Below are positions 6,352-47,000 of a stretch of DNA of 64,000 nucleotides, in pieces; the first letter of the stretch is position 1, and each line of letters begins with the position of its first letter. A model generated the notes under the pieces. That model saw nothing but the letters and a program-made list of their open reading frames with translations, had not been told where the DNA came from and did no database searches. A program made the position numbers and the translations under genes. The DNA is from Amoebophrya sp. A120. Lineage: Eukaryota; Protista; Dinoflagellata. Location of the stretch: contig CAJINV010000010.1 of assembly GCA_905178155.1 (NCBI GenBank), positions 583,851 to 647,850 of the forward strand, given 5' to 3'.

Positions 6352-6559
6352 CTTTTAATGTCATGCTGGTGTCGCTCTCTTTTTAGTATTAGTCTGTCTG
6401 TTTGCTTCGAAGGCGGCGGCGCGGCCGATCCTCTCTCGACCACCTGCAACACGTCCTTCACCCACTGATTACTACCTAGTGCCCCAGACCTGCTGTGGGC
6501 ACCAGATAAGCAGAACACGACGGCCAAATACTTCCTGGAGACGACCCGAAAGGGGCGGG

Positions 6560-23100: not shown

Positions 23101-24381
23101 GATGGGAGCCGAAGGAGCCGAAGCGGCCGTACTAGATCCTCCAGTAGTTGTGAGGTAGCTGGGCAGGAAACTGGTGAAGAATGCTGCTGTTGTCGACGAC
23201 TGCCCCGGTGGCTCTGCTTCCGTCTTGATGTGCTCATCATCTGCGACAGCAGCGGTGGCAGGGGACGTGCTAGCGAATCCAAGTCCTACCCCGCCCGGCA
23301 CGCTCCTTGGTATCGCGGTGGTGGACGAGGACGTCGCTGTGTTAGTATTATTGCTCATCTGCATGCTTGTACTTCTCGCGTCTTCCTCTTGTGCGGCCGT
23401 GCTGGTGGCAGCTCTCCCCTTGATCTCCGCCTCCACGATTGATTTTCGAACGGCTTCAGACCGTCTCCGTATCCACAGTAAATTTCCCGTACACGTTCAC
23501 GTACAAATGAGGTCTCCGCATGACAAAACTTGGGTTCGATGCTAGTGTAGCATGACAAGTTTTGCGCTCCAAATTGGCGAAATTTGTGATGCATCTTGTA
23601 CATGTACGGGAAATTTGTATTGCATACTCCGCGCGTACGGACTGCTGGGTTGGTTGTCGGCGCCGTGGCCCAGCTGCTTCAAGAGCACCTGGTGTATCCT
23701 GAGTAAAAACGTCCCCCCTGTCATGCAGATTTGCAATGACGGGAACATTTGTGATGCGCATCTCCATGATAGGCATAATTTCCAGTGGTGTTTTGGAAAA
23801 ATTTGTAATGCTGTAAACAGGATCAGCAGATGATTTTGTAATGCGGATGTCCTTGCCAACCTGCACTACATTACGGACTGCAACTTGTCATGCGTGACTC
23901 CCAAAACTTCTAGGTTTGCGTTGCAATATCCCTATCTTGACTCTGGGGTGGGGACGGTCTTACGTAGAATATGGTGCTCCATTTCTTTCAGCACTTTGTC
24001 CTGGTCCTGCCTCTCTAGCCGATCCAGAATCATGCTTGCTTCCTCGTAGAGCTCCTCCTTGATCTGCAACAGGTGCTCAGTGGGGGTGCTGGAAATGAGC
24101 CGGATCTTCCGGTTCTTCGCTTCTTCTTGTTCCGCCGCCTCTTTTACTTCACGCGGATGGGCCGCCATTGAGGATGTTGATGTCCTTGTTGCTGCAGGAG
24201 CGCCGAGGACATGATCCGCCTGGGGTATGCTGGCTGTACTCACCCTGGTCGTCGTGGCACGACCTCCGCCAACAGCGACGCCAGTCGGGTACAGCTCCTT
24301 GACAGAACTCGAGTCGCGGAACTTCTTCATCTTCTCCTCTTGTTGCACAACGACCAGAGGCTGCGGGGCCGCACTTGCCAT
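14135..24381 (-). CDS. Large coiled-coil hypothetical protein with a possible PH-like segment (may be two genes; ends uncertain)
   Basis: ATG at 24381; K/E/Q/L-rich exons between about 20 introners; segments LYLDDVLSLRWG and EFLAENDEQMEFFMVYFHEFCEHL. Confidence 0.5.
14187..14503. mobile_element. Introner family D (TIR TATnnnAGGAAAAATCCCCCTCCCCATA)
   Basis: TSD TTTTT/TTTTC. Confidence 0.85.
14955..15279. mobile_element. Introner family D
   Basis: TSD CTTTG. Confidence 0.9.
15413..15697. mobile_element. Degenerate introner family A
   Basis: TSD GCGCG. Confidence 0.8.
15754..15903. mobile_element. Introner family C (TIR TATnnnnTGCAAAAGTATCGnACTCG)
   Basis: TSD GATGG; left end TGT. Confidence 0.85.
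15975..16226. mobile_element. Introner family A
   Basis: TSD AAGCC. Confidence 0.9.
16682..16940. mobile_element. Introner family A
   Basis: TSD ACTCG. Confidence 0.9.
17351..17602. mobile_element. Introner family A
   Basis: TSD ACCGA/AGCGA. Confidence 0.82.
18501..18771. mobile_element. Introner family A variant
   Basis: TSD CGGGA; removal gives KVLPELSSK. Confidence 0.88.
19056..19377. mobile_element. Introner family D
   Basis: TSD CCTTG. Confidence 0.9.
19421..19693. mobile_element. Introner family A
   Basis: TSD TTCAG. Confidence 0.9.
19763..20041. mobile_element. Introner family B
   Basis: TSD GTACG. Confidence 0.92.
20058..20382. mobile_element. Degenerate introner family A
   Basis: TSD TTCCG/TTCCC; only 16 bp from the previous element. 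Confidence 0.75.
20596..20858. mobile_element. Introner family A
   Basis: TSD CCCGC. Confidence 0.88.
20932..21210. mobile_element. Introner family B
   Basis: TSD AATGA. Confidence 0.9.
21241..21453. mobile_element. Introner family E (TIR TATCnCAnGAAAAAAGTGTTACAnTTACAC)
   Basis: Near-identical to 45777-45989 and 56386-56595; left TAT replaced; 13-bp direct repeat. Confidence 0.85.
21531..21669. mobile_element. Introner family C
   Basis: TSD TTCCG. Confidence 0.88.
21737..21982. mobile_element. Introner family H
   Basis: TAT..ATA TIR; TTCAA repeat offset by 3 nt. Confidence 0.78.
22664..22988. mobile_element. Old, degenerate introner family A
   Basis: Eroded TIRs; TAT..ATA kept; TSD no longer matches. 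Confidence 0.6.
23470..23626. mobile_element. Introner family I (TIR TATnCAnnnnAAATTTCCCGTACA)
   Basis: TSD CTCCG. Confidence 0.88.
23695..23971. mobile_element. Introner family B
   Basis: TSD TGGTG. Confidence 0.9.
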
Positions 24382-26474
24382 TTTAGTTTCTATGATTTCC
24401 TGGCACTTTACTCATCTTCTTTCATTTTATGCAACTTAATTCGATCCGATCACGATGAGCGACTGCAATTTCATTCAAAAAGCCCGGCAGGAGAAGGACA
24501 CTAGATACTGCAGAACAAATAAACGAATAGAAGGCTCCTGCACCTACGACAAGAAACGATGGCGATTTTTGTCATCAGAGGACGAAATTCGATCGCGACC
24601 AGCATAGAAAGAGGAGCAAGCGTCGATAGAGCCTCTACTTTTCCAAGTCTTTCAATCGGACGAACAAGCGACTGCGCCAACAGGCGAGATACAGTTACAG
24701 GCGATGCGAATACTTCAATCCTTATCTCTGACCGACGTAGGCGTAGTACCTCTACACGATGCCTTTTTTCGAACAACGCAAAGGAAAAGGAGTTTCCTTG
24801 TCACATCAAGCGACGAGGATTAATTTCAAATCAAGCGGCAGAACAAACATGATGCCCGTGCGCGTCTTCCCAGCAGCACTGCAGTACCGACAAGGGCAAG
24901 TCGGGTCGGTTGTGGTTTCCCTGGAAAAAACTTTTTCTGACACTTAAGTATATTGCTTTTTCATTGCGTTTGCGGGTGGAGGTGACGAAGTCATCCAACC
25001 ACTTCCCATAGTCATTTTTTCGTTGTCCTCTGTTCTATTCTTTCAAATACAGCACCTCCTACATATTTTTGCGCAGAAGTCTGTAGTATTTTTGCAAAAA
25101 AAAACGAAGCATCATGGAAAATTTGAGCAAGTAGCTGAAAACGGAATGACAATTTTTATCAGTTGTATCAAATACAAATGCCTTGTTTGCTGACATATGT
25201 TCTTGCCAAACGCGAAACATAATTCGTTTTCTCGTAGTTCTCCCTTCGACACTTAGCACCAGGTCGTGATTGTCACAAAGATGAAAGTGAGTCCGAGCTA
25301 TTTGTGATATTATCGGAGCGATGCGTAGAAGCGGGAGTCAATGTCAAAGTCATGGCGCCGGCTAAAATTTGTTGTCCACATACAATGTTTCATTTACAAT
25401 CAACTTCGACACCCAGAAAAACCAGCTAGCGCGCAGTCGAAGACTCGGCAGATGGCCCAAACGCATCTGACTCATCCGAATGCGCGTACCCGCTGGCACA
25501 GTTGGAACCAGAGCAGAAAGTAGGTATCCCAGAGAAACTAGTTCGAATAGTATGCTGTTCATACAATGCGAAAATAGGTTTGGCCTGCTGCCTCTGAATT
25601 TTTGCATGACCTACTCAGCGCGCCATGGGCTCGCCCACGAAGTTCATTCTTGCGCATTTGCATATGCATCACAATGATGTCCTTCGTTCATTTTTCCAAG
25701 GGATACGCCTTCCGTTCCACGACGGCAACGACCACCGGTTGCGGGTGGGTTCGGCTCTCGCACTCTTCTCTTCCTCTTTCGGTGGATTGCTTCCGGGCGA
25801 GGATTTCGCGACGATTTTTGGTTCCCCATTCGTATGAAGGGACAAATTTCCGTGGCCTCACGCATCCATAAGCATCCGGAAAAAAAAAAGCTCAAATTTG
25901 CAAAGCACGAGAAGGCGCGACTTTTCAGATCACAAACGACGAGCCCCGCACTTCAGGCTCGACCAAAAAAATTGGAAACCCCGGACGGAAAAGCCGCGAT
26001 GTCGAAACTCAGAACCGACATCCTCGACGGCCCACGTCGGTTTCTTAGTTCGCCGCGGGTTCTCATATATCAATCGCGACTAAAGTGCTAAAGTTCGACT
26101 ATTGTTTTTATCAGATAGTTCGTGCTTTGGATTATAGCTCGCTTGAGCAAGTGTGAGGCTTTGGCTGCATTTTGTCCCTTCATAGTCGTTCGTGCTGATC
26201 TCGTAGTAAAAGAACTTGTTCTTCCCCAACTTGCAGTCGAAGCCGTACGGTAAGTCCTCGCGGCACCGGGACGTTGCCGCGCAGGTGAATTGTGACCCGT
26301 CTCCCATACTCCAAAACGCGTTCCCCCAGCCTCTGCTCTCATAATCGCAGCACGGGTGTTTCATTTTTATGGATGGAAAACTGACAAGCGCTTCACTCTT
26401 ATGTATAAAATACTAGCCAGCACGGTCAAGCCGCGCTAATCCTAATGTAAGTAAGTTACTTACTTACATTACGT

Positions 26475-26537
26475 CGCTACAACCAAGTCGGCGCAATAAG
26501 TACTTGAAATACTTACTGCGCCGACTTAGTTGTAACG
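26475..26537. repeat. Inverted repeat with 28-bp arms (hairpin)
   Basis: CGCTACAACCAAGTCGGCGCAATAAGTA-7 nt-TACTTACTGCGCCGACTTAGTTGTAACG; 3 mismatches. Confidence 0.85.
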
Positions 26538-26599
26538 AAGTCGCCGGATTTTTACCAGGGTGGAGGCGTGCTAAAAAAGAGGTCCCAACCTTGAAAGCT

Positions 26600-29500
26600 G
26601 AGAAACATCAGCAGCCCCAGCGGTCGCTCGGGTCGTATTTGCGCGGCCCGGCCGTTGAAAAGAGAAACACTCTACGCGGCAATCGACTGCACAGGCAGAC
26701 GCTTCCTTTTCTGCGACATCTATTCGCTTCGGCATGACTGCGGCGCGGCCAGTGAGGATTGCTAGCCAGATGCCAATCGCGCCACGGAACGTGGCGACGG
26801 CGAGAAAGTGAGCATATAAGGAGCCAAACTTTTGCTCTCGCAGGTACCATCAACACACTGCGGCAACCCTCCTTGCCCGAGAAGAATACTAAGCCTCCGC
26901 ACCAAGTCCACGCGGGTTGATCTAATACTAACTTACCGGTCGCCGCTTGCTGATGGCGCTTGCGCCGGCGAAATAGTGGGCCTGCATTCGGTTCACGCTG
27001 TGTGTGCCTGGCCGCTCTTTTTAAAATTTTTGGACGAGCGCCGTAGTGGATGAGTGTTCAGCATTTTGTGTGGTGCCGCGTATTCGCTATGTCTAGACGC
27101 ACGAAAAACAATACTCGGCTCCCACTCTGGACTTGGAAGGGGCGCCGGGCTGCAGAAAAAGTCTGCTAAAGCGTGCCCTGCAAGCAAGGGCGCCGACCCG
27201 GCGCCCGTCGTGCTACGGGCGCCAACACTTTGGGAAAATCACGCACATAGCCAAGTTGCGTACGGTGCGCCTTGCCTTTGCGAGCCGAGCGCGCAAATAG
27301 GGCACGGCCTCGAGGAAGAGGCGGAGGGCGCTCCCCACTTTCCGCCGCTTTTCATGCCAACCGGGGTCGCGCCGCGGGCGAACGCAAAAGCTGCAAAATA
27401 AACCACACCACCCACCGACCACACCCTGGCGGGCTTTTTGCGTTGGCTGCTTTTCTAGCACGGCCGGCCCCACCGTGCTAGCGGGCGCGGCAAATACCGC
27501 AAAAAAAGCGACCGCCCGCGCGCCCATGCTTGCAGCAGCGGCCGCCCGCGCTCTCTCTTACTCTATAGAAAAGAAGCGCGCGCGCGTTTTCCAGTAGTAT
27601 TTGACTTGCCCGTGTCGGTCTGAATGCTGCACCCGTCATCAAATTCGGCAACACTCCGAGGCGCTTGCTTGCTGGCCGAACTGCCGCCGCCTCCTGTGTC
27701 GATCCAGGCGTCGGTCCCGTCCATGCTAAAGATGTGAGCTGCACAACCCCCATCCTCGGCCAAAATGCGCTGCTCCTCGTCGTCGCATTCTGGGTCGCTA
27801 AAATCGTTGTCGCACTCGTGGTAGCCACCATAATTGTCGAAGTTCCACCAAGTCCAAGGGACGTCGCCCCAACGGCAGCACGGGTGCTCCCTGCTTCGCG
27901 ACGCCCAACACCCGCACACACGCCCACACACCCGCGCGCCCCCCCAGTTGCCGAGGCCCCTCAACCCGAGCAAGGGCGCAAGCGCTGGCGGACGCCTGCT
28001 GCGCTCTGTCATGCAAATTAATACGCCCACGAACGACACCCGGCAGGCATTCGCGGGCCGCTAGCCGGCCCGCAAGCGAACCACTATGGCTGTGCGGCCG
28101 CAACCGCCCGCGAAGGCTGGCCAAGCGGCCTGCGACGGACCGCAAAGCCAGAAAAGAGACAGCCCTCCGTCCCAGAGGCCACCACGAAAAGACACAACCC
28201 TCCGTCCCAGAGCCGCCTGCGTCTGTCATTCGCGGCCGACGCGAAAAAAATGGCTGCAACGCACACTGGCTGCGCAGCGGTGGCGGCGGTGTCTTTGTTT
28301 GCCTGCGAGCGCACACCAGAAAAGCGGCCAGCTAGAAACCAGCGGGGCCGCCTCGGTTTGCCACACGCAAAGCAAACCAGGAGGGGCCGGCGCGATCAGA
28401 AGCAGCAAACCAAATAGAACAGGGCCGGCTGCTTCGCCCCCTCCTTTTATTTGCCTAGGCAGCCTAGGCAGAAAAGCACGGCCGCGGCCTGCGCCTGCAA
28501 GCGAAGTGTGGCGCGTTTGTATGTTTCCTACACACAAGGCGGAAGGGCGAGGCAGGCACGCCCGCGCCAGGCACAAGCGGCGGGCGCCGCTTGCTTCGGT
28601 CTGTCGTGCGCAGCGAGCGCAAAAAAATTAATCGCAGCAGGGGGGCGGCCACAGGCGCCTGGGCCTGCGTGGGCGCGTGGGAACGCAGACGAGGAAAGCT
28701 GCGCCAGACAAGCGAACACCGCCGCCCCTGTTCGCCATGCGGTGCGAAAACGCAAAAGCAAAAGCACTCACCAAAGACGCCCCACGCCACTTTCACCTAA
28801 TGCGCAGCGCAGAACGAAAAACCGCAGCAAGCCGAGAGGCGGCCGCGTCCGCCTGCGCTGGCATGCGCTTACCAGAAAAAGCACTTACGCAACGGGAAGG
28901 GGCGCTCTGGTTCTCGCCCATGCGCGAGCCAGAAAAGAAAACCGCGAACCGAGAGCAACCAAAGCCGCCCGCCGCCTGCCATGCGGCGCGCAAAAATAAA
29001 AACGTATATAGGCGCAACACGCAAAGAGGTTGCGACCAACCGCGGCCGCTTCTAGTACTTTGCACGCGCAGACCAGGAAAACCGCGAACAGGAGAGCGCA
29101 CAAGCCCTCTTTTTTTCGCTCACGCAAACCAGCCAGGACACTCGCAACGCGCGCAGGCTGGGAGGCAACAGGGCCGAACGCGTAAAACGCAGCGCAAAGG
29201 CTGCCGTGCGCAACGCAAAAAAAAAACAGGACGGGGGCAAGAGATGGCCCTGGCCTAAACCGTTTCTGTTTACATACTATACCCAGACCAGAAAAGCCGC
29301 GGGCCAACTACGAGCGGGCCCGCTCTTGTTTGCAATGCGCAAAGAAACCAGAAAGCCAAAGGCGCACGCCAGAAGGCCCCAAAACTGCTGCCGCGTGCCA
29401 CGCGCATCGGAGAAAAAGCGGAACAAAATAGCAAGGGCGCGCGGCTCTGTTGTGCGAATGCCCAGACACGACAGGCGGGCCAGAAAGGCAAAAGCCACAC

Positions 29501-32500
29501 GGGGACAAGAAACGACCGGGCCCGCTTCTGTTTGCCCTGCGCAGACCAGCCCGGGCGCAGGTTGGAAACACTCACCAAAAAGCGCTCCCGGCCGTCCTTC
29601 AGAAAAGCTGCAATCTGCAGGCGGCGGCGGTCGTTTCGGCTTGCAAGCATCGATCCATGAGCAGGCTGGCCAGAACGGCAAAAAGCCGCCGCGCTTTTGT
29701 TCGCCGTGCCTGCGCAAACTACAAAGGGCGCAGGCTGGAAGGAAACACCCATCCGCGGGCGCGCTCGGCTGTCCTGCGCAACGAAAAAAAACACAACTCC
29801 GGACCAATCGAGATCGCCTAAGCTCGCGCGCGCTGGCCAGAAAATAAACGCCAGCCGCGGACCAGGAAAGGCGGCCGCTGCCCCTGCCCAACAAACATGC
29901 ACAAGCCTGCCAGGAAGCCCCCGAGGCCGGGCGGGCGCGCGCTGCCCGAGCGCGGGCGCCTGTTAATATGATAGCCGAAAAAACCCAGAAAATACGCAGC
30001 CATGGGTGGCGGGCGGCGCGGCGGCAGTGGCTCTGGCTGCCCCCGGGGGGTGGCCTGTCTGAGCCGCCAGCAAGGTCAGGCCACCCCCCCCCCTCTCGCC
30101 CGACGGGCTGCCTTTGGGGGGGTGGCCTAAGCTGCCCGCGCCGCTTCTCCCTTTGAGCCTTTGCTTTGGTTTGCATTTCCAGGCGCGGGCACGGCGGGGC
30201 CGCGGGCGCGACGTCCTTTTCGAAGAGGCTGCCAGGGCAAGCCCCGTCCCTCCGTCCGGCAAGTTGCACCAGGCCCCCAGAAGAATGTGCCTCCTGGGGG
30301 CGCGGCTGCGGAGCTCGTAGCCTGCCGCCTCGGGCCGGTCGGCGTCGCCGCAAGAACCTGTTGCGGGGTCCTGCCTTAGCAAGCCCCTTAGGGCGGCAGG
30401 CGCCTGAGGGAAGCGGCCGCCGCGAGGCCTACAGGAGCGCCGCGCCGATGCTGCTAGCATTTGCAATAATATTGCTCTGGCGCGTTTTCTTCCCGGAAGC
30501 GCTTGCGTGGCAAATCTGTTCCGGTTGATTCCATTGCGACGACCAGCCATCGCAATAAGTGCTGCGCTGTGGATTAATCCGCGGCCATCTGCAGCATTAC
30601 GCCGGGCCAGGGGTGTCCAGATTGAAACGGTAAGGCCCCGGCTGACAACGAACAAAAACCGGGGCGGGCCAGGACGGGCGCGGGCGGAGCGGAAATTGGG
30701 CTCGGGCCCCTCAACCTGGCTAGCCGCCAAAAAAAAAAGCCGAAAACGATATGCGCGCGCGCCTGCGCGAGGGTGGCCAAAGGGCTGAAAAGCAGCACCC
30801 ACGCCCCCCCCGCGCCGGCGCACAAGACAGCAAGGAGAGCGGGCCGCCGTCGAAGGGGGCGAGCACCCCGGAAGAGACGAGAAAAAGCTGGGCCGCCAAG
30901 GCTGCGCGCCCGCCCCCCTAGTGCTTGGGCGGCGCACGGGGCGGCCAAAATGCTGGAGAACGAGGGCGGGGCCTGAAAAAAAAAACGCCCGGAAGGCGAG
31001 GCGCCAAACACACGAACACCGAACACGCCCCCCCCCCGCCCGGGAAAGCTGCGGCCGGGGCCCCTTTTTCAGGTTACCGAAAACAAAAACCCCCGGGCCG
31101 GCAAAATAATTATAATTAAGAAAGCGGACCCAGGGCAACGAGCCCGCGGGCCTTGGCACTACTGCTTTTTTCTGGCGGCCCCATTCGCCGAAACCTGCCA
31201 GCTGCCAATGAATGCGCCTGCGCCGGTGGCGAGCCCAATCACGCAGGCACGGGCGGGCGCACGGCCGGGGGGGGCGTGGCCCTGACTACACGCCGCCCCC
31301 CTGCTGGACACCAACGCCGCGGCCCGCTGGCTAGGTGCGGCCCTTGCGCGGCTTCTTACTTTCTTTCATTCGTTTCATAGCAAGCGAGCGCGGGTAGAGA
31401 CGGGCCGGGCGCGCGCGTCGCGCGTTTGCTTCTGTGCGGGTGCAATGCCTGCGGTTGGTCTTCGTGGCCAACTGCCGCGCATCCGTTCAAATTGTTCTCT
31501 TCCCCGTTTGCATTTGCAGGCGAGCTGGCCCCCTTCGTTTTTCGTTTCTTTCGTCGCGCGTTCCTATGACGAGGGCGAAGAACACACGCCCCCCGGGTAT
31601 GCTTCTGCTTTTCCGGGCGTTAGTAAACTAACGACGGCGCGCCGCCCTTTTCCTCCTTCGTGAAATGATTGCGCCGAGGGCCCATGACTAGATCGCGAAG
31701 CGATTCACTGGAAGCAAGGAAGCATGGGCGCGGTGCGGCCATGAACATGCCTGCTCACCACAACGGCCGTCGGGGCGGGGGCCGTCGGGGGGCGCCAGCT
31801 CTTTCGCCTGGCCGCTCGGCGCTTGCGGCTTTCGCTTTTCGCGCGAGCGTGCCGCGCCCCGGCCCCCTTGCCGCGGTGCGCAACACAACCAGGGCAGCCA
31901 GGGGGGTTCAGTTCTGAGGGGCGCGAGGTAGGAGTGGCAAAAAGAGAAGACAACGGGCAAAAGGCACGCGCGCGCCGCTTTTAGATGCGCGGCACCCTTC
32001 ACACCCATGCCACGGCCTAACCGGGACCAGCGGCAGGGCCGGAGCCTTGGGCGCCCAAAGTTAGTGGCCCCTCCCGTTCGACGCTGCCGCCCTAGCTAGA
32101 CTGCCCCTGTACGGCCTTGCTTCCTTGTCTTCGTTCTCATTTATTACGGCCTGGGCCGGAACCCATCTGCGGTCGCGCTGATTGGAATGGCGTGGCCCGT
32201 TTTTTTCCCATGCTGCAACCACTTCGACGCCCGGCGCTCGCCGGTGCCGCCCTCTGGCCATGCTTCTGCTTGGCGCTGTGGCGGAGGGCTTTTTGAATGT
32301 GTGCCAAGCGCCTGTCCGGGTGCCGCGCAACGAACGTGACCGACGTAGCGCGGCCAAGCCTCCTGCCCGCGCTTCTAGTGACAGAGGACGCCCATTAAGT
32401 TTGGCGCGGGTTTTGCTTTTGCAGTTTGCATGGACTTTGGCATGCGAAGGAAATAAGAAACGGGCGGCATGCTACGCCCTTTGTTTGTTTCCGCAGGTGA

Positions 32501-35500
32501 CGTGGCAAACCCTCGGCACCCGAGGAGCCCAGGTGCCTCCGCGAACTAGGGTGGGCCCGCCCCGCTCGGACAGTCGGCCCCAAAAGGGACCGCCCTTCTG
32601 GGCGACCAACCTGTCACAATCGGGCCGATGGCATGCCAGCTACCTAGGCCTAGCTCTCCACCTTTACTAAACTCGGCCGCTTTTGTTGCTTAGCTATCAA
32701 AAACACATCAGCGGGGCCAGCTTTTACGGCGCCCGAACGCGAAGCAATGCGCGGGCCAGCCCCTCTCTACATGCGGCCGCGCGCCTGTCTTTCGCGCGGC
32801 CCTTTTTAGGTTCCGCGGCATACATACCTAGCCAGTAGAGCTTGGCGCGCCTGCCTGAATGGCACGTCACAACCAGGGGCCGGCGGCGCCGCTTTTCGGT
32901 AGCGCGCCGATGAGATGCAACGCGCGCGCCCTGTTTGGGAAGAAATTCCGGACGATTTTGGCTCCTGGAGTATTTTGTCCAGTGGGTGGCAGCGGAAAGA
33001 AAAAGGCGCGCGGCCCGACGGCTAGACGGTGCCAGGCGCTTTGTTTCTTTTGTAGATGGCAAAACGGATAAGCTAAGGACGCCCTACGGGGGCGCCTGGG
33101 GCCTCACTACATACGGGGGCACCTGCATGCCTGGGCACAAGACCGACGGAAAGCGCGCAAGGCCGGGCCCAAATGATGGCAGCGCAACCCCTGAGATATC
33201 CGTGGCGCCGGCGGACCACCTGGGGTGCTGGCTGAAACTAAATAACCGCCACCGGCCTCATCGGCAAGGCCCCGCGCGGGCAGTGCCACTGGCGGCAGCG
33301 CCAAGAAGGGGCGCCGCTTTTGGGAGTATGCGCCCGGCGGCGCCACCTTCCGGGCCGCTGACTGGCAGGCGAGGCACCACCCGAAAGCGGCGCCGCACTG
33401 ACTGGCGCCCGTGCGTCGCCCTGGCACCCAGGGCCGGTCGCGAGCGTCCACTGCAACCGGCCGCGGCGCCACCTGGGCTGGCAGCATTTTTGGCGCCCCT
33501 ACTCTGGTGGAGGCGCGCGCGTGCCTGTCTTTTCGCCTGCGCGCCCACGCATGCATCTGCTATGGGAAACTCCGCCCGCCTGGCGGAGCGCGCGCGTGTG
33601 CTTGTAAGTAGGTTGTAGCGCAAACAAAGAGACACGCCACAGCAGTGCTCGGGCCGCCGCCCGTTCAGGAAAAACAAACACACCAAAGCACACGGGGGGA
33701 CCATACATGCCGCGCGGCCCAGCCATATCCGCCGGCAGTCCGAAACATGCTAGGTTCCAACATGGCAACGGGAAGGGCTCTCTTCGCGCGCCCTCTTTCG
33801 TTTTCTTCTCTATGAATCCCGCGCCCGGCGACCGATATTGCTGCTTAACCATATGCGCGCGCGAGAGCCTAGCCTCCCTGCGTGCCGAACCGCGGGCCGC
33901 GACTCCACGGGAGGCACGCTTCGCATGCGGCATCCCCCCGCGGCCCGGAAGGGCCAGGGCCAACTACGCACCGAACGTCGCCCGCGGGCGGCGGCCCGCG
34001 CGCAGGCTCCTTGGATAAGCATTGGATGCGAAAGCCACCTACGTCGCAGCGGGGCGTCCATCCTATCTAGCCTGCAGCGACGGCGGCAGCTATTTCAAGG
34101 CCGCCGTGCCGTCGCGCACGCAAAAATTTAAGGCTGAGGAGCGGGCCCTGGTCTGTGCGGCCTTTGCGCATTTTCCCGAAACCCGCGACCACCGCTTGGC
34201 CGGGCCGCCACTGCTGGCCGCCTGGAGTGCAAGAGAACACAGGACTTGTTGGGCCCATCGATCCAGAAAACCTGAAAAGGTGGGGGCGCTGTGACATGTC
34301 CCAAGTCGCGCTCTTTTTGCGCCGACGGACCTTCGCGAGGGCATGGTGCGAGACCGGGCCCCCCCGGCCGCCCTTCCTTGGTGACCAGCTTCTTGGGCCG
34401 GCGAGGATTTTCTGCTTTTGCACCCTCTCGCACTTTTCCGATTTTCTGTAGTCAGTGGACCGCGGGCCGGCTCTGGACAGGGTCCGGCGCCTGCTTCCGC
34501 CCGCGCTGTGGCGCTACTTTTTTCCGCCCTTTCCAAAGCCTGTTTGCGTGCGCAACCTGCAGGCGGCCCTGGGCCGCCGGAGGAAGCCAGGCGCCTGCCT
34601 CCGCGCGCCGGCCGGGCCCAAATTATGGCGCGGCCCTTTTCCTTTCTTTTTCCAACTCGTCGCAACCTGCGCGCGGCCCTTGGCATCCGGGCAGATCCCA
34701 AACAAAGCCTGCGGCGGCGGCCGGCACAAGACCGACGATCGAAAAAGGACTTTGCGAAGCCAATTTTTTGGATGTAGATGCGGGGGGCCCTGCGGGAAAA
34801 GCGTCGGCCTTCCAGCTTCCCCCGTTGGTCTGTTTTTTGCGGCTGGGCGCGCCTCGCTTCCGCGCACCTCCCGCGCCGCCCCCTCCCCCCGCCCGCACCT
34901 GATTCCCTTGGCCCTCTTGACTCCATATTGTTTGCATGTAGCGGCAAAGGCCTTCGCGCTGCGTTTGCAACGCAATATCGCGGGCGTGCAGAGCGAGCGC
35001 GCGCCCTGCGCATTTGATCTACCTGACCGCATGAATTACCCGACGGGCAAGTGGGTGATGGGCTTTTGCATGGCGGCGGCAACAAAAGGTAAGGCGCAAC
35101 GCTTCCTTGTCGGGGTGCTCTGAGGTAGCTGGCATCAAGCCCGGGCAAGGGCAATGCCAGTACCGCGCCCCGGCACGGAGCGACTCTGGCCGGTCGCGCC
35201 ACGCGCAGAAGCCGGACGCCCCACGCCTGTGGTGGTTCTGCTGGAAGCAAGAAGGCAAACACGCGGCCAACCTACCAAGTTCTGGCACAGGCATTCGGCC
35301 GACGCCCCACGCAGAAACCAAACCGACGATCGAAAAGGAGGCGCCCATTCCAGGCCTTCTTGAAATAATTCAAACTACAAGAGCTGCGCAACATCGGCGA
35401 GACCAATTCTGATGCCGCGGGCAAAGCGCACAGCCGAGCCTGGGCCCCGGGGGGCGCTTCTTGCCCTCCGGCCGTTTTGCCAGGGGTTCAGAAATCGGCC

Positions 35501-36200
35501 TTCTCCGGAAGCACGGCCCGGAGAAGGGCCCAAGTCCCCCCTTTTTTGTTTATACATAGTCATTTCAAAAACATATCCCATCCGGCCTTCCCGGCTTTGG
35601 GACTTTTCGCGAGCCGAATTCCGTAGGGCGGGCGCGCCGTGGGCGCGGTAGAATGCGCAGGTGGTCACGCTCAGGGCAGTTCGCGAGAAGCAGGGTCGAT
35701 CGACCTACAGAAGGAGAAGAAAGCTGCTTTTGCTCACCGCGTTGGAGAACGTTGCCGCCTCCTCCACTGCAGCGAAAGATCGGCCAGCCAGACGAGGCTG
35801 CTTCGCCTCGTCAGGCATGCCAGGTTCTTCAAACAGTTCCAGGTCTTTCGAAAGAGGGCACGACCCAACTGTAATGCGCCCGGCGCTCGGGCCGCCAAAA
35901 CGCGCAGGCGCAAGCGGCGTTACTCCCGCCGTACCCTTGGGACAGCCACTTCAATGGTGGACCACCGCGAGGCCTCAATGGGCAAGCAAGCTGGCGCCTC
36001 TGTGTCGCACACCAATCAGCTACGCTGAACTCATTTGTGGAAAAAAAAACCTGCTCTGGCTTAAGTCCTTTCCGTTGCCATATCCAGAAACACCGCCGCC
36101 GAGTCGCTTCCCGCGGCTGGCGCCCCTGTCTTGCGTTGCTTTTCTTTTTCTCTAGTTTCCAACGTGCGTCACATTTGCATATCTCAATAAGCGACCAACC
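26600..36200. other. GC-rich, homopolymer-rich, TC/GA-poor degenerate tract (eroded transposon or gene relics)
   Basis: Abrupt compositional change; no intact introners; only spurious R/A/P/G-rich ORFs apart from short normal-composition islands (about 27600-27880 and 35680-35870). Confidence 0.6.
28230..29900 (+). repeat. Degenerate tandem array, unit about 55-60 bp
   Basis: Recurrent ACCAGAAAAGCnGC...GGGCCGCTTCTGTTnGCnnTGCGCA-like units. Confidence 0.55.
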
Positions 36201-36772
36201 AACCGACCGGAGTTTGACCCTACAGGCCCACCCGTTTTGTTACTTTGACAAAAGTCACATAATCTCGCATGGCAAAAATTGACATCGCAAGCGCCAAGTC
36301 TTCAAAGGGTATTAACATGCAAGGTACTCGATGGTATAGATTAAAAAAAAAACGAAAAGAGGTACCTTCGTCCTCCTCGTCGGTCGTGAACGTATTTCCT
36401 CGCAAGTGTTGAAAACTGCCGTATTCCATGGAAAAGGATACCCGTACCCGCGGATAAAAAGAGAACTTGTATTGCAAAATTCGCGTCGCTCGGTCTTGCG
36501 GAGACCAGAGCAAGCGCCAGCAAGGCACTTTCCTGCCATGCAAAATGCAGTTTGTAAACTTGGCTTACACCTATACGCTATAGAAAAGTAGCGCAAATAA
36601 AACAAAGTATACTTGGCATGCTGAGCAGCCAAGAAGACCTTATTTGTGAAACGAAAATCCGCAACACCAATTCTTTTTTTTTTTTGTATTATGGGTGTAC
36701 TACAACTTTTCTGTAGGATATACCGGAGACAGCGTTTAGCTCCATACTGCTCATCGTGGCTGCACGCGACGA

Positions 36773-39343
36773 TATTACACTCAAAAGTGCCCCCACCGCC
36801 CCGGAAGTTGCAAATGTTTCTGATGCTAAGTTTCCAAATGGAAACTTTTCGTCTTGCATGAAAGCACCATGAGTCTTTCTGGCACAGAATCTAGGCCCGC
36901 AGGGCATCTGAGGCCCGGCTGCCCATTCAACATCGAAAATTTGTCACGGTGAAACGTGCAAAATGGAGAGCGTCTCTAACTTGTATTGCAAACATGCATC
37001 ACATGCCAAAAACGGTCAAGAATTTTTTAAGAAAAAAAGCCCTCTTTTTGATGCTAACTAGCGACATTTTCATGCAGAATCGCTCTTGTTAACTCAAAAA
37101 GGCAAAAACGCGCTGCAGCTGCACCGTGTGACGGATAGAGTTAAGCCTAAAAATTGCACAAATGCACAAAAGTGCACAAATTAAGCCACAAACGTGGCAC
37201 ATGTGCAGGATTTAGGGCAAAGGTGCAACATTTTGCACACTCAGCAAAAAGGCCACGACCCCGGCTGCGTGGACGGTTCTGCGTTTTTACAATATTCCAG
37301 CGCAGCAGCAGAAGCCGCAGCGGTGGCCTTTATTTCAGGCGCCGCGGCCGGTTTGAAAGCAAAATCCCGCAAAACGTGGCCGCTTTAGCTCATAGGCGCA
37401 CAGGGCGCAATAGCATGAACGAAATACGCGCAAACAACGGCAAAGAGACAGCTTCTTCGTGCTAACTAGGGCCATCCTGGTGCAGATTGGGTCTCGCTAA
37501 GCCAAAAAGACAAAAAGGCGACTAATTTTGCAGAAGTTATCAACTTGCATTGCAAACATGTATCACATGGAAAGAAAAGTGCCAATTTTCTTAAGGTACA
37601 GACGCACCTTTTTGGTGCTAATTCGACTCATTTCACTGCAGCACAGGTCTTGTTAAGTCAAAAAGAGCGAAATGGTTGGACGAAAAAGCGCACGGCGGGG
37701 CCACCTTGTTAAACCTAAAAATTGCGCAAATGCGCCAAAATGCAAAAACTAAGGCGGAAAGGGCGCAAATTTTTCAAAATAGGCACAAAAGTGCGCCACT
37801 ATGCGCATTCTCGAAAAATGCGCAAAGTCGCAACATTGCGCGCGCCGATGATTTTGCAGCGGTTCACAGCGCGTTGGCGCTGTCGCACCCGTAAGGCTAA
37901 CTCCCGACAGTTTGGTCGTACTTAGGACCAAAATGCGCCAAAAGAGCTCCCCTCAGCTCAAAAAGGTGCGCAAATGCACCAACAGACGCAAACTAAAGCA
38001 AAAACGTCGCAAAGCCATCGAAATAGGTGAAAAAGTGCAACACTTTGCAAATTCTCCAAAAAGGCGCAAAAGCGCGACAAGGCGCGCGCCGGTGATTTTG
38101 CAGGAGCAAGTCCGCAGAGCGGTGGCGCTATCGCATCCGCCAGGCCAATTCCAGACAGTTTGGCCGTTCTGAGGACCAAAATGCGCCACAGAAACTTCCT
38201 CCAACTTAAAAAGGCACAAAAGCGCGACGAAATGAACGAAATACGGCAACCCGGCGGCGAAAATAACCAGCCCCAGGCAGCTTGTTCGTTTTTAGCCCCA
38301 AAATGCGCCAGAAAAGCTCCGCGTAGCTCGAAAAGGCGCAAAAACGCAACAAAATGAACGAAGTACGGCAAAAAAGCAACGGGAAGACACCCAAAAAGGA
38401 AGACGAAGGCAAAACATGGACAGCGTCGCCACTTTTAGCGTAAAACCTTAGCAACCGCGGCGCCTCTCATGGATGCTTGGTAAGTCGGGGCTGGCGCTGC
38501 AGCGCAGCAAGGATAGTAAGCCCACAAATGCAGACAAGGAGCGAAAAACGCCGCCGCGTCACTCTTCTGCGCCCTGACATGAAGAGAAACGCCACGCGAC
38601 CAACGCGCGAAACGAAAAACGCCAGAAAAATGTCCGCACCAAGAAGCAGGCCGCTGGCTGACACGCCGGACCGGCCTCCGGGATTGCATTACATGGAAAA
38701 CCAACGAAGAGCCTCGCTTGGTGCTAATTCAGGGGCGCTTACGCGAAGCAGTCGCGCCACTAGCTCTGGAAGCAAAGTGCGAAAGACGCAGCCGGTGCCG
38801 CGTGTTTGGCCCACGAAAATTTCGACACGAAAAAGAGAAAAAGGGCGCCAACTGCAGAGGCGGGCTGCTGTTCATGTTCCTACTGGCATAAAATAAATAG
38901 CAAAAATGCAAAAAAAAGCCCCGGCAAAATAAAGCACAAAGCGCCACGGAGCCGCACGCCTTAGCTCCGACATGGAGACCCGCGCCGCGCGGGCAACATA
39001 AAAAACGGACAACACCCCAAAGGCGCCCACGTCAGCACGCGAGCCGGTGGCGGGGAAAACGAATCGCCTGCCGAGGCTACACTACACGCAAAGAAAGAAA
39101 AAGCCGAAGGGGCGGGGCAAAGTCTAAAATCTTCCGCGAACATGGGGAGGGCGAAGCCCCCCGGCAGCGCAAGGTTGCGCGCGCTGCAAAAATTAAAAAA
39201 GTTTCTCTTTTCATTTTTTCAAATATTCATCATCTAAAATCTCGGGCAGTGCTCGATTCAAATCTCTTGGGGAGTTTCCATTGGAAAGCTTTGCATCACA
39301 AATGCTGCCATTTTCTGGGGTGGGGGCACTTTTCATGGTAATA
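36773..39343. mobile_element. Introner family J (TIR TATTACnnTGAAAAnTGCCCCCACC) expanded by a nested insertion of about 2.3 kb
   Basis: TSD GACGA; ends align with the reverse complement of intact copy 41485-41792. Confidence 0.82.
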
Positions 39344-39409
39344 GACGATGAGGATGGTTCATGGTTCCGATCTTCGTGCTGGACGACGCTCTTTGTCGGA
39401 TCCGCGCGC

Positions 39410-41484: not shown

Positions 41485-41792
41485 TATTACAATGAAAAAT
41501 GCCCCCACCCCACACTTGGCAGCATTTGTATTGCAAATGCAAACCTTTCCAGTAGAAACACTTGCCGTCTTGCATCTCAGCATCACAAATTTTCCATGCT
41601 GGATAGCTCGAATTTGTGTTGCGAAGGGGCCCAACAGCAGCCGGATCTGTTATGCACAAGGCACCTTGTGCGCCTAGATTCTGCATCAGAAAGGCTCGCA
41701 ATCCTTTCATGCAAGACAAAAAGCTTTCATTTGGAAACTTTGCATGACAAACTTTCGCAAATTCGGGGGTGGGGGCATTTTTCACTGTAATA
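41485..41792. mobile_element. Introner family J
   Basis: TSD CCTGT. Confidence 0.9.
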
Positions 41793-44037: not shown

Positions 44038-47000
44038 TCACGCCAAATTTGGCGTTGCAGCACCAGAAACCCGCGTGGGCGGGCGGTCCTCGATGTAGGC
44101 AATGTCCGTGAAGGGGTGGCGGTACAGCGGTTGGTTGAGCCGCTTCTGGTCTATCCTGTGCAAAAGTATCGCACTCGTTGTAATTGCATTTATGCATGAC
44201 AAATCTTTTTATTAAGGTAAATCAGCATGAGAAATTTATTCATTTGTAATGCTGAGCAAATTTGTAATGCAATTGCTATATATTATATTCATGCGAAAAA
44301 AGAGGTAGACAGAGGGTAAACAAGAGGTGGCCGAGAGGTCAAAAAGAGGTCAAAAGAGGTAAAAAAGAGGTCGACAGAGGTGGAGAGGTGGCGCGGGACC
44401 CCTTTCGAGAGGGTCGGCGAGAGGGTGCGCGAGTATAGCCCGCCGAAGGACCCACCTTAAGGCGGCGCCTAAGTGCCTCAGAGGGTGCAGAGAGGTCACA
44501 AAGAGGGGGCGCGAGAGGTCGACAGAGGTCGAGAGAGGTGGCGCGAATAAGGGCCAACCTCTCGCGCACCCTCTCGGCCACCTCTGTCGACCTCTACCCT
44601 CGAGTATAGCCGGACTATTAGCGGGGACCCCCAAAAGAGGTAAAAAAGAGGGTCTGCGAGAGGTCTGCGAGAGGGTAAAGACACAAAGTAGCGGGCGCGA
44701 ATCCGCATGGGAGTCCCCATATTTAGCGTCGCAGGCTCTTCGCGGACTTGTTTTGTCCGGCGCCTGTCCCCACCACCCTCTCGCGCACCCTCTCGCGCCA
44801 CCCTCTCGCGCGACCCTCTCGCGCCACCCTCCCGCGCCACCCTCTCGCGGCGGGCGGCTTCTGTTCGCCCCCGGTGTTCTTTGCAGTTGCTCCCTGCGCA
44901 GAGCGCCCACAGGCGCGGGAGGCGCGCAAGTAGTCCTGCGGGTTGGCGCGGCGCAAACTCCAGTATGCTTCGTTGCGCACAGGCCCGTGGCGTTGTGGTC
45001 CGATCGGCAAACTGTCTTGCCCCGGTCCAACAGCCTTGCGCTCCGGCGGCAGCCGGAGCATGGCTGGTTTATACTAGTACGACACTTTTGCACTGCATAT
45101 GGTCCAGCACGTGGCCGATCAACCCGATGGAGCGCGCCGGTATCAAATGCAAATATGTCTGGTGTTCTCAGTTAAATGTCATGCGGTTTTTGCATCATGA
45201 CCGCCCAGAAGCTTTGGTAAATGCAAGCAATAGCATCACAAGTTTAAAGTTTTGAGAAGGCTTCTTCTCGCTGATGCCCATCGGCCAGAGCTAGTAGCAT
45301 CACAAACGCACAAGTCTCTTCCAGAGGACCTGGACATATTTGCGATGCCTAGCCAGCACGAACAAGCCGTTCAGGCAGCCGGAATCCACGAACTGGTCAC
45401 ACTCTTCGACTGTGAACGCGCCGCACTTTCTATCGTGGGAAAAAACTGTCTCAGGCGCAACTTGCAATGCGCAACTCCCTTGAGACAGTTTTTTGTCATG
45501 CTCGACACGCAAGAAAATCGTCTTTCACAGGCATTTTTCCTTGTTTCTCACGCATCACAGGTTTTCCGTGTCTTGCTGCGCAAATTTCTATTGCTAGAGT
45601 CTACTGCAAAGGCTTGAGACTGGGACAGTTTTTTCGTACGATACTTTCGCAGCATGTCCACAAAGGCGGCGGCAATGCATCCGTCGACGTTGAGGATGAG
45701 GTTGGCTTTCTTGGTGATGGTCACTTCCTCCACCTTCAGCGCAAATCCCAGCACGGACTCCTGCGGATCCTCGCTGTATCCCACGAAAAAAGTGTTACAG
45801 TTACACATTTGTAGTGAATTCAGCAACACAAATTTCTCTGCATGAGAGAGAAAACTTGTAATGCAGAAATCCTACGGGAAAACACCTGTGAAACGAGGCT
45901 CCTATGCATATCCGGCATGACAGAGCTTGTCTGTCTTGCTTGCCCTGCAACGCAATGTGTAACTGTATTAACACTTTTTTCTGGCGATACGCTGGACCAG
46001 TTGTCCAATGCGAACTTCTTCAAAATTTCCACTCGTTTGTCTCGTGAGGAAAAACAACCCCTCCCCATATCGGACAGGAAATTTGTGATGCTGGATTTCC
46101 GTACACAAGTCGGCTTGTATTGCTAGAGGGCCAAGGGACGCAGTTATGGCCGAAAATTTGTCATGCTGTTTCCCACTCGCAGTTGCCTCCTGTCATGCTA
46201 AAGACGCAAGGCCTTCTTACGTCAGCCAGCGCTACAGACTGCATCTTTTCCCTTCTAGCATGACAATATGATTTGTGGTCACAAATCAGCATCACAAATC
46301 TTGAGTATGGGGTGGGGGGATTTTTCATTTTGATAGTTTGTCCGGGTTGTGCTTCGACTTGATTCGGTGCCCGATCCCCATGATGAGTTCGTTCTTCTTC
46401 TTCATTTCGTTCACGTAGTCACGCGCGTCAATGGCCTTGTCGAACTTATCGAGACTGCAAGATAAGTATCGCACTGGTAATAATAATTGCAGTCACACCT
46501 TAAAAAGCTCTTTCCCAAGGTAAAGCCGCACTACAAATTTCGTTTCTCATGCTGAAGAAATTTGTGTTTGTCATGCGATTTCTACTAGAAGTGCGATGCT
46601 CTTGCGATGCATAAAACGCCTTGGTGAAAGACTTTGCGGCGGCATCAAGCGCGCCGCCAAACCGCGGCCCAATGGTGAGCAACCCGCTGCAGAGGCTGTC
46701 CACCACATCCTTCCCCGCGCGGGCACACACGATTGCGTTGTGCGCTCCCGAGACGGCGGGACCGTGGTCGGCGCACACCATCAGGATCATCTCCATGAAC
46801 TGGCAGCTATCAAATGTAAAAGTGTCTGGGTCTGGAAGGTTGCAACTTGTGATGCTGTCTTTGGAAGGTAAAAAAATCTGTATTGCATGACCAGCAAGAG
46901 GGCTTCAGTTTGTGCTACGCGGAGTGGGCGTTTCTCATGCGGAATACGCATCAGAAGGCCCTTTAAAAATCTATGATGCTCGGCCATGCATTACAGGCGT

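Follow-up and report, generated by a model that had tools for sequence, protein, structure and literature searches.

The A/T-run-rich tracts in a 64,000-nucleotide stretch of the Amoebophrya sp. A120 genome (hereafter the window) are, on our preferred but tentative reading, non-coding DNA, in part transposon relics, that is under a regional AT-to-GC bias led by T>C changes, with a mark on thymine as the hypothetical cause. This bias is likely to be slow and regional, and not an assault on TC pairs like the one known from fungi: the spectrum is mixed, its direction is opposite to that of RIP, and there is no evidence of a hypermutation burst.

Layout and reliability of the tracts

The region at 26.6–39.2 kb, which the first-pass annotation had taken as one tract of transposon-derived DNA, is a composite of a single-copy intergenic part (27–36 kb) and a multi-copy insert inside a long introner (37–39.3 kb). 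The relevant features are:

2323–4053: introner hosting the young element copy at 2433–3946, which is nested inside it
2433–3946, plus strand: young copy of a 1.3–1.5-kb non-autonomous element with subterminal inverted repeats, terminal hairpins and a 109-bp tandem array
2988–3353, plus strand: the 109-bp tandem array inside the element, running into an N gap
6500–7700: intergenic tract, GC 69%, composition as in tract A
12000–12500: weak tract within 2.1 kb of sequence that has a 42-nt direct repeat at either end
27000–36000: tract A, single-copy, GC 64%, rich in A/T runs and poor in lone T (from composition and depth), lying between two minus-strand genes save where it holds 5′ exon(s) of the left-hand one
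27601–27889, minus strand (from a protein-like frame): exon-like piece with normal dinucleotides and a spliced-looking X3 contig at depth 187 (X3 is RNA by guess)
28200–29900, plus strand: degenerate short direct repeats of 25–64 nt, 65–88% alike, spaced ∼170–240, A-skewed
33811–35030, plus strand: decayed full-length element copy (the relic), GC 65%, homologous to 2433–3946 (nhmmer, collinear alignment)
36770–39345: long introner with terminal inverted repeats at 36773–36846 and 39273–39343, of the family of 41485–41792 (arm alignments)
37000–39270: tract B, multi-copy insert, GC 51%, depth ranging along it from ∼2- to 16-fold single copy; has degenerate repeats of 122/244/564 nt and A-tracts phased at ∼10 bp

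Transposon origin is borne out for only ∼1.2 of the 9 kb of single-copy tract and for the 2.3-kb insert. The repeats at 28200–29900 are possibly an old satellite or the interior of an element and, judging from the flanking frames, the long introner is probably an intron of the minus-strand gene ending near 36.3 kb. Tract A and the 6.5–7.7 kb tract both lie upstream of minus-strand genes. A strand switch at tract A was rejected because the identifiable genes on either side are, by inspection, both on the minus strand. When tract A outside the relic, the 6.5–7.7, 12 and 44 kb tracts and tract B were compared with other tracts and loci by nhmmer, there was no match above E 0.05 but weak, bias-dominated ones, and introner profiles found no relic in 27–36 kb. 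Among 38 window ORFs scanned against Pfam, 3-HAO alone passed its cut-off; of the 179 tract ORFs of at least 62 aa, 150 were scanned and none matched Pfam at cut-off. No TET/JBP thymidine hydroxylase was seen in either set, no viral ORF was found, and Rfam returned 0 matches at gathering score. The host belongs to the dinoflagellate lineage, the best named eukaryote matches being Amphidinium (68%) and Perkinsus (70–71%).

Low-quality consensus, raised earlier as a possible cause of the tracts, is refuted by a 13-kb X1 contig that spans 24001–37007 with 0 differences and 0 gaps (X1 is possibly the window's own source) and by X3 contigs from a second study, which agree with six pieces inside the tract at 0–2 differences each. 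Likewise, three element copies taken from a different record set share the composition of the window copy. One tract of the window does contain an N gap, and nanopore calls could be disturbed by modified thymine; given the concordance above, however, an artefact of sequencing or consensus, e.g. long-read errors at modified bases, is exceedingly improbable. Depth over 28.0–36.7 kb is flat at ∼44–56 in X1 and 0–11 in X3, the latter being RNA by guess only. The RNA runs X8 and X9 gave partial introner matches only and are uninformative on expression.

Tract composition reflects loss of lone thymines

The hand counts of TC+GA per 120 nt (5, 5, 18 and 9) from which TpC-directed hypermutation had been proposed were exact on recount. 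Over 26600–39220 we counted 1082 TC+GA, whereas shuffling bases within blocks of 500 nt gave an expectation of 1478±33 (observed/expected, O/E, 0.73). Run-preserving shuffles, with an expectation of 1298±27, still left an O/E of 0.83, and TC/GA did not return to normal after homopolymer correction (0.82); the control region 45200–57820 scored 1.02. The compositional signal is therefore real, and it has no TC specificity. GT+AC was equally depleted (0.72 by base shuffle, 0.81 by run-preserving shuffle and 0.78 homopolymer-corrected; control 0.94), while corrected values for CT/AG (1.10) and TG/CA (1.19) were not low. TTC/GAA was enriched (1.47) and TCT/AGA normal (1.03), whereas other T-containing trinucleotides were scarce: GTA 0.42, TCA 0.49, GTC, ATC and AGT each 0.50, and CTC 0.58. 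It follows that T outside T-runs is lost, not TpC as such, and TpC as the sole target is unsupported, even though, relative to background, trinucleotides with TC belong to the most depleted if TTC and TCT are set aside.

AAA stayed near its background level (26 per kb versus 30–36), GC reached 64–69% in the tracts versus 48% in background, CpG was not depleted (1.05–1.22) and CA/TG was not enriched (1.02). TC O/E followed X3 depth (rho 0.49, 30 bins). The 26.6–39.2 kb signal is discontinuous; the exon at 27601–27890 (GA O/E 1.06) and ∼36.0–37.2 kb score normal. As for the side tracts named earlier, those at 2.5–3.9 and 6.5–7.7 kb were recovered and 12.0–12.5 kb was recovered weakly; 44.5–45.0 kb likewise scores positive.

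Models converting background DNA to tract A were compared by the G statistic, for which unmodelled background gave ∼3400–3700 and half-versus-half noise 119. A T>C-only model with protection by a 5′ T (sparing TT) reached G 146–211. Lone-T models gave ∼370–500, a TA/TC model 736–938, a TA-only model 940–1082 and context-free T>C ∼960–1075. The four-product TC scheme of the first-pass annotation fitted poorly (about 1300–1500); adding context-free T>C to it brought G to 227–301, so composition fits are not unique, and TC>TT plus TC>CC plus general T>C also fitted fairly well.

Copies of one element, young and decayed, carry excess T>C

Substitution bias in the tracts was testable in a single element family. 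Four young copies yielded 100 polarised changes (34 T>C, 27 C>T and 39 transversions), with T>C in excess of C>T per site (34/1665 versus 27/2269, p=0.037) and W>S in excess of S>W (46/1665 versus 38/2269, p=0.025). Thymines changed more often after G (16/251 versus 33/1414 elsewhere), in TC (18/376 versus 31/1289 for other T) and after a base other than T (VT 38/970 versus TT 11/695; TTT 0/357), and T>A was scarce (3/49 versus 36/166 in introners). The proposed context bias stands in so far as young copies have a somewhat unstable T in TC, but the products TC>TT and TC>TG are unsupported, the C of TC being raised neither there (10/361 versus 41/1908) nor in the relic (5/53 versus 41/241). CpG was not unstable in the element (12/786 versus 39/1483).

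The context signal in young copies is ∼2-fold, modest and fragile. The excess at the T of TC was strongest in the tandem array (7/95 versus 5/334); outside the array the relative rate was 1.6 for TC (p=0.25) and 2.45 for GT (p=0.03), and the strictest subset of 19 events had no context effect (index p=0.24). An earlier count, in which 6 of 7 differences in part of the tandem repeat touched TC/GA, did not extend to whole 109-bp units (16/33, 19/37 and 9/16, or 48–56%, versus a 43% null). Context-free change would be expected to erode the bias, and private young-copy changes do not (net AA/TT 0 versus −27.6 expected, GT/AC −3 versus +16, TC/GA −4 versus +12), although gene conversion between tandem units and mis-polarisation would likewise drive net change to zero. 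Their equilibrium, in a test that is partly circular, has a GC of 62–67% and a dinucleotide profile correlated with that of tract A at r=0.91 (genic 0.41). The young copy at 2433–3946 is itself already TC/GT-poor (O/E 0.78/0.51) at 59% GC. Depth at the right end of the element equals ∼70 copies, which are near-identical there; one collapsed contig matches the window copy at the letters shown, and the element end was not found in viral contigs.

The relic at 33.8–35.0 kb matched the element at E 8.7e-19 and 5.7e-15 (nhmmer). Counting from young copy L002, from which we infer polarity, T>C far exceeded C>T (48/219 versus 17/295, p=7e-8; 48 and 17 of 124 changes), and there were 67 W>S versus 29 S>W, compared with 79 versus 75 in eight deep introner pairs used as control. 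The relic alignment had no TC (19/52 versus 59/167), GT (15/35 versus 63/184) or TTT (12/37 versus 66/182) effect and no preference for TpA (4/24 versus 74/195); many small GC-rich duplications were present. The same bias would extend to the rest of tract A.

Introners and tract B lack this bias

Changes in introners were symmetric (T>C 93/3201 versus C>T 72/2497), with no TC bias in broad families (282 changes), close subfamilies (306 changes) or very high-depth introners. The TIRs of young introners had been called TC/GA-rich; introners are not, being near neutral (0.94). At GT and TA they do have a mild T>C excess of their own, and the introner and tract regimes are consequently not cleanly separate. 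What endures of the original proposal is a regional substitution bias in at least one transposon family, absent from short introners.

Of 26 majority-to-window changes in tract B, 7 were T>C and 6 were C>T (index p=0.30), a neutral outcome with no TC targeting (2/26 at TC/GA versus 16% expected). Tract B and the 109-bp array have A-tracts phased at ∼10–11 bp, AA autocorrelation in tract B peaking at lags near 9–10, 19–20 and 29; 10-bp phasing was absent from tract A.

A possible thymine mark

Under the regional bias that we favour, thymines (adenines on the other strand) would mostly become C and more rarely G, with a rate that is probably about doubled following G or preceding C and lower within T-runs. 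The eventual outcome would be GC-rich sequence with surviving A/T runs and GCGC/GGCC words. Exons would be spared via selection, short introners are free of the bias, and elements propagating from such DNA would bring its composition to new sites (2.4–3.9 and 37–39 kb). The most likely molecular cause, still hypothetical, would be 5hmU made by TET/JBP on repeat DNA, which may mispair after further oxidation or be followed by error-prone repair. The result would be a slow mutational footprint; nothing here indicates a dedicated defence.

5hmU would be a plausible cause of the regional bias. It is enriched on repeats in core dinoflagellates, according to the available parts of two reports (PMC11572971, PMC11071213), and opposite 5-formyluracil polymerases insert G or C (PMC2673420, in the part available), so that T>C and T>G would be expected. 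Those same parts also say that 5-formyluracil could not readily be detected in three core dinoflagellates (PMC11572971) and that, in Breviolum, 5hmU had no discernible sequence preference (PMC11071213); a TA/TC context is reported for Crypthecodinium. Our literature search found no report of 5hmU in Amoebophrya, nor any demonstration of it in syndinians. We regard as unlikely the stronger proposal that 5hmU or a derivative, placed on silent repeats of this syndinian-like genome, acts as a mutagen through which transposons are erased by T>C/T>G change outside T-runs (a 'reverse RIP' that would be to thymine what CpG decay is to cytosine), with introners escaping by residing in transcribed genes.

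Alternative explanations

The main rival, biased gene conversion plus slippage, has a modest chance of being right. In this account, unconstrained DNA would undergo GC-biased gene conversion regardless of context, or a W>S bias of a general kind, along with slippage that purges A/T-run interruptions, and no base mark would be needed. The W>S excess in young copies and relic, the rarity of T>A, the almost unchanged AAA density and a relic with many small GC-rich duplications but no context effect are all as it would have them. Against it, corrected TC/GA and GT/AC are low while CT/AG and TG/CA are not, its context-free and lone-T fits are worse than those with 5′/3′ context, and the GT excess remains outside the tandem array. 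Rather unlikely as a general account, though probably the right reading for tract B alone, is a composition that is intrinsic and selected, because elements need bent or hairpin-rich DNA or because GC-rich tracts are promoter-like, and that copies inherit. A-tract phasing in tract B and the array, the TC/GT-poor state of young copies, neutral change in tract B and the location of tract A and 6.5–7.7 kb upstream of minus-strand genes agree with it. However, tract A lacks phasing, inheritance does not account for the relic's further shift toward GC since it diverged, and private young-copy changes leave the bias uneroded.

Adenine deamination (A>G) of silent or foreign DNA in another context, as proposed for Bigelowiella natans, is improbable. 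It shares the direction (T>C/A>G) and, apparently, the kind of target, silent single-copy DNA (bioRxiv 10.64898/2026.01.13.699255), and T and A lesions are indistinguishable from sequence alone. There was, however, no TpA preference in the relic, TA-only models fitted poorly, CA/TG was not enriched, T>C made up 34/100 and 48/124 rather than nearly all changes, no viral ORF was found, and T>G was raised too; inosine would not give T>G. Equally doubtful, and if anything less credible, is the RIP-like hypermutation of TpC/GpA to TT, GC, CC and TG as a genome defence that the first-pass annotation had proposed. TC/GA O/E of 0.65–0.73, the reduction of most TC trinucleotides, the raised T of TC, most of all in the array, and the fair fit of TC>TT plus TC>CC plus general T>C speak for it; the poor four-product fit, a C of TC that is not raised, tract B and the 109-bp units speak against it, as do the small effect and many transversions, and the polarised spectra largely lack a strong TC excess. 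RIP-likeness, moreover, is unsupported in that GC rises, the spectrum is mixed and the ∼70-copy element end is near-identical across copies.

Relation to known systems

RIP, which requires duplicated sequence and comes in bursts, consists almost entirely of C>T (G>A) transitions and brings GC down; it involves a RID-type methyltransferase and is timed to the sexual cycle. The tracts resemble its products as repeat-derived DNA with a regional, dinucleotide-skewed footprint; unlike in RIP, GC rises, T>C leads alongside numerous transversions, young ends remain intact at high copy number and tract A is for the most part single-copy. In CpG decay, marked DNA slowly acquires a context-dependent footprint through deamination of 5mC, an epigenetic base; the mechanism proposed here is analogous but opposite in direction, and CpG is neither depleted in these tracts nor, in the element, unstable.

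In integrated viral DNA of Bigelowiella natans, nearly all changes are T>C/A>G transitions at TpA, at a ∼1000-fold rate and with CpA/TpG enriched (bioRxiv 10.64898/2026.01.13.699255). Shared with that system are a regional AT-to-GC bias through T>C/A>G transitions and a dinucleotide footprint, and the target may likewise be silent, single-copy, probably foreign-derived DNA of a marine protist; observed here were low X3 depth at 28–36 kb (X3 being RNA by guess), one transposon relic and no Pfam match at cut-off among the 150 tract ORFs scanned. In contrast, TpA is not preferred here, the spectrum is mixed, the GT, TC and non-TT context is ∼2-fold, and no viral ORF was found. A thymine-directed process on repeats, as proposed here, would also resemble core-dinoflagellate 5hmU marking, and the older TA/TC preference partly overlaps the TC signal; the available parts of the reports (PMC11572971, PMC11071213) describe 5hmU as a silencing mark and report no mutational footprint, and here GT is a target and TA is not.

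If modified thymine is the cause, a mutational footprint of 5hmU could be read from sequence alone, which would allow marked domains to be located and their history to be dated in whatever dinoflagellate assembly is at hand, and Amoebophrya would be a second protist lineage after Bigelowiella with selfish DNA drifting from AT to GC; the success of introners, in contrast to the decay of other elements, might also be explained in this way. If biased gene conversion and slippage are responsible, the effect would be an ordinary, isochore-like one.

As far as the available parts of the two Amoebophrya reports go (PMC7789003, PMC12130899), there is no description of satellite-like inserts nested in long introners, or of a compositional split between introners and other elements. 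These reports do describe dense non-canonical introns bounded by inverted repeats, in several unrelated families, and nested TIR transposons, and these introner elements account for the surrounding window.

Genomic setting and layout of the interval

The window is eukaryotic (GC ∼48%) and carries its genes on the minus strand, where they are interrupted by dozens of inverted-repeat-bounded elements of 130–330 nt (introners); excerpts of two papers describe intron architecture of this type for Amoebophrya (PMC7789003, PMC12130899). For a 3-hydroxyanthranilate dioxygenase exon, the top named eukaryote matches were Amphidinium (68%) and Perkinsus (70–71%). Introns and matches together point to a syndinian-like dinoflagellate. 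The interval 26600–39220 is composite and includes tracts A and B.

Features of the window and of matching metagenome contigs
∼27–36 kb: tract A, single-copy, upstream of a minus-strand gene
33811–35030: decayed, collinear copy of a 1.3–1.5-kb non-autonomous element, the sole provable relic in tract A
37.0–39.27 kb: tract B, multi-copy insert within a long introner (inverted repeats 36773/39343)
2433–3946: young element copy, nested in introner 2323–4053
L001 365–1834 (minus strand), L002 432–1769, L003 1–1098: young element copies on metagenome contigs
24932–28420, minus strand: putative multi-exon gene suggested by contigs of sequencing run X3, with an acidic, Trp/Cys-rich exon (27601–27889) and no Pfam match
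45700–57000+, minus strand: gene resembling a fused ATP-citrate lyase by inspection, cut by ∼25 introners

Depth in tract A is low in X3, a run of a second study taken as RNA by guess. No Pfam match was obtained at the cut-off (150/179 ORFs scanned), no match in Rfam and no introner relic in tract A. These searches gave no origin for tract A outside the relic or for 6.5–7.7 kb, and a transposon origin is thus shown for a minority of tract A. Depth at the right end of the element (3441 vs 44) indicates ∼70 copies, and a pattern scan of metagenome contigs supplied the three further young copies, 6–11% apart. The element ends are asymmetric, with ∼28 nt outside the left subterminal inverted repeat, and long perfect hairpins lie inside both; no clear target-site duplication was seen at the element, which we take to resemble Helentron-associated or HUH-type elements. 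Tract B carries degenerate 122/244/564-nt repeats and ∼10-bp phased A-tracts and has a GC content of 51%. Introners 36770–39345 and 2323–4053 have been enlarged to 1.7–2.6 kb by nested insertions and kept their terminal inverted repeats; the former seems still to be an intron of a minus-strand gene.

T outside T-runs is lost from the tracts

Our recount reproduced exactly the four TC+GA hand counts of the first-pass annotation, and the depletion it described is real: TC+GA in 26600–39220 stands at 0.73 of the block-shuffled and 0.83 of the run-preserving expectation (30 shuffles per type; control region, 1.02). It is not confined to TC/GA, as GT+AC is also low (0.72 and 0.81 respectively), and AA/TT (observed/expected 1.8–1.9) and GC (1.4–1.75) are raised. 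Trinucleotides are low for GTA (0.42), TCA (0.49), GTC, ATC and AGT (0.50 each) and CTC (0.58), and high for TTC (1.47), CTT (1.65) and TTT (4.4). G+C reaches 64% at 28.0–35.6 kb; AAA per kb stays close to background despite the drop in A+T from 52% to 36%. The class lost is T outside T-runs. Exon 27601–27889 keeps normal composition, and ∼36.0–37.2 kb scores as normal DNA.

That the tracts are low-quality consensus sequence can be dismissed, because contigs of two runs agree with the window: a single contig of X1, possibly the window's own source, spans 24001–37007 with 0 differences and a flat depth of 44, and X3 contigs match six tract pieces with 0–2 differences each. An artefactual composition thus has next to no probability.

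Substitution spectra of element copies and introners

Polarizing singletons by majority among the four young copies gave 100 changes in 3934 site-copies, with T>C at 34/1665 vs C>T at 27/2269 (p=0.037), T>G 12, T>A 3, C>A 11 and C>G 13. T changed more often after G (16/251 vs 33/1414 elsewhere, p=0.002), before C (18/376 vs 31/1289, p=0.023) and after non-T (38/970 vs 11/695, p=0.005), and never within TTT (0/357). C of TC showed no significant effect (10/361 vs 41/1908), nor were CpG changes raised. Placed context-free, the same changes would erode the compositional bias (AA/TT −27.6, GT/AC +16, TC/GA +12); the observed net changes (0, −3, −4) do not. Removing the tandem array and left end left 58 changes, with a relative risk of 1.6 at TC (p=0.25) and 2.45 at GT (p=0.03) and p=0.008 for the combined index; four-row columns without L001 (19 changes) retained no context signal (p=0.24). 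Much of the TC signal comes from the tandem array, in which units probably convert one another.

From L002 to the relic, over confidently aligned columns and assuming a young-like ancestor, T>C reached 48/219 vs 17/295 for C>T (T>G 19, T>A 11, C>A 12, C>G 17); the same procedure on eight deep introner pairs, a control for polarity, gave 79 vs 75. TC, GT and TTT effects were absent here, and TA changed less (4/24 vs 74/195). The TC dependence expected by the annotation was visible at T of TC in the full set of young copies, faded in the reduced sets, and was lacking in the relic and in tract B (below). Nine close introner subfamilies (306 changes) gave T>C 93/3201 and C>T 72/2497, with T of TC at 31/632 vs 135/2569; T>C was mildly raised at GT and TA, and TC/GA eroded as expected (+10 vs +11.8). 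A regional AT-to-GC regime differing between one transposon family and introners is supported, which bears out part of the annotation's interpretation; a context rule for T changes has moderate support.

Introner changes also create few TpA (+4, where +33 was expected) and remove less CpA/TpG than expected (−27 against −68), and T>C is raised at TA (22/420 vs 71/2781). Genic DNA may have a slight bias from TpA toward CpA/TpG, the context seen in Bigelowiella.

Models and rival explanations

Three background sets were evolved toward tract A trinucleotides, with fits that are non-unique and vary with the sequence taken as the start.

Misfit (G, lower is better; start ∼3400–3700, half-vs-half noise 119)
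TC>TT/GC/CC/TG alone: 1294–1493
Context-free T>C: 957–1075
TpA only: 940–1082
TA/TC: 736–938
Lone-T variants: 372–504
Four TC products plus general T>C: 227–301 (TC>GC and TC>TG fitted at ≤ 0.1)
T>C with freely fitted 5′ and 3′ factors: 146–211 (5′ T 0.01–0.05, 5′ G 0.6–0.8, A/C 0.24–0.5)

Young-copy rates give an equilibrium of GC 0.67, AA 1.5–1.7, GT/AC 0.7–0.75 and TC/GA 0.8, correlating with tract A at r=0.91 vs 0.41 for genic DNA. The similarity of the element itself to tract A makes this test partly circular.

Our leading reading, held with somewhat less than even confidence, is that the tracts are shaped by a bias toward T>C(G) change that is slow and regional. A thymine mark would be its most economical cause. 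According to excerpts of PMC11572971, core dinoflagellates contain abundant 5-hydroxymethyluracil (5hmU), enriched on repeats; TET/JBP enzymes make it, and it has a link to the silencing of transposons. An excerpt of PMC2673420 states that polymerases can insert G or C opposite 5-formyluracil, in keeping with T>C and T>G changes and the scarcity of T>A. Against the mark, the same sources in part report that 5-formyluracil was not readily detected in three core dinoflagellate species (PMC11572971), and other excerpts that Breviolum 5hmU is without sequence preference (PMC11071213) and that Leishmania 5hmU-only loci prefer T-stretches (PMC5282726). Literature searches, with excerpts of PMC12584245, PMC6313786 and PMC12005148, yielded no report of a 5hmU mark in Amoebophrya or Syndiniales.

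Biased gene conversion with slippage is a less probable but serious alternative. Selected or inherited element composition is improbable overall and likely correct for tract B, whose composition would be inherited from its master. Of 62 majority-vs-window differences 40 were listed, and the 32 at which X1 reached 50% were kept; among the 26 of these inside tract B, polarized from majority to window, 2 fell at TC/GA, where 16% would be expected. T>C (7) and C>T (6) were about equal there, and the erosion index gave p=0.30. Adenine deamination is very unlikely. RIP-like hypermutation of TC/GA, the original proposal, is hardly tenable: its four products alone fit far worse than T>C with free neighbours, the tracts fail RIP's direction and repeat trigger, and the 6 of 7 repeat differences at TC/GA cited for it did not generalize (16/33, 19/37 and 9/16 between units vs 43% by chance). 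The tracts are somewhat like integrated viruses hypermutated by T>C in Bigelowiella natans but, as far as the excerpted preprint goes, lack its TpA context and purity features (bioRxiv 10.64898/2026.01.13.699255). On dinoflagellate RIP/dinucleotide or GC-biased transposable-element spectra, a search that left most subscription journals uncovered returned just this preprint and a Tetrahymena genome paper.

Other repeats and motifs

Identical 42-nt direct repeats (10778–10819 and 12882–12923) flank a 2.1-kb stretch without Pfam match, and a 21-nt tandem duplication adjoins the second copy. A hairpin at 26471–26541 (35-nt arms, 86% complementary, 1-nt loop) lies where an intron-like region is locally AT-rich. 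At 44290–45050, purine/pyrimidine-skewed short tandem repeats form a large, imperfect, GC-rich inverted repeat whose repeats are TC/GA-rich. Introner families with unrelated terminal repeats all contain several GCAT(G/C/T)ACAAA-type motifs, which might act as a signal for splicing or protein binding; the T-form has 101 matches in 39.3–64 kb.
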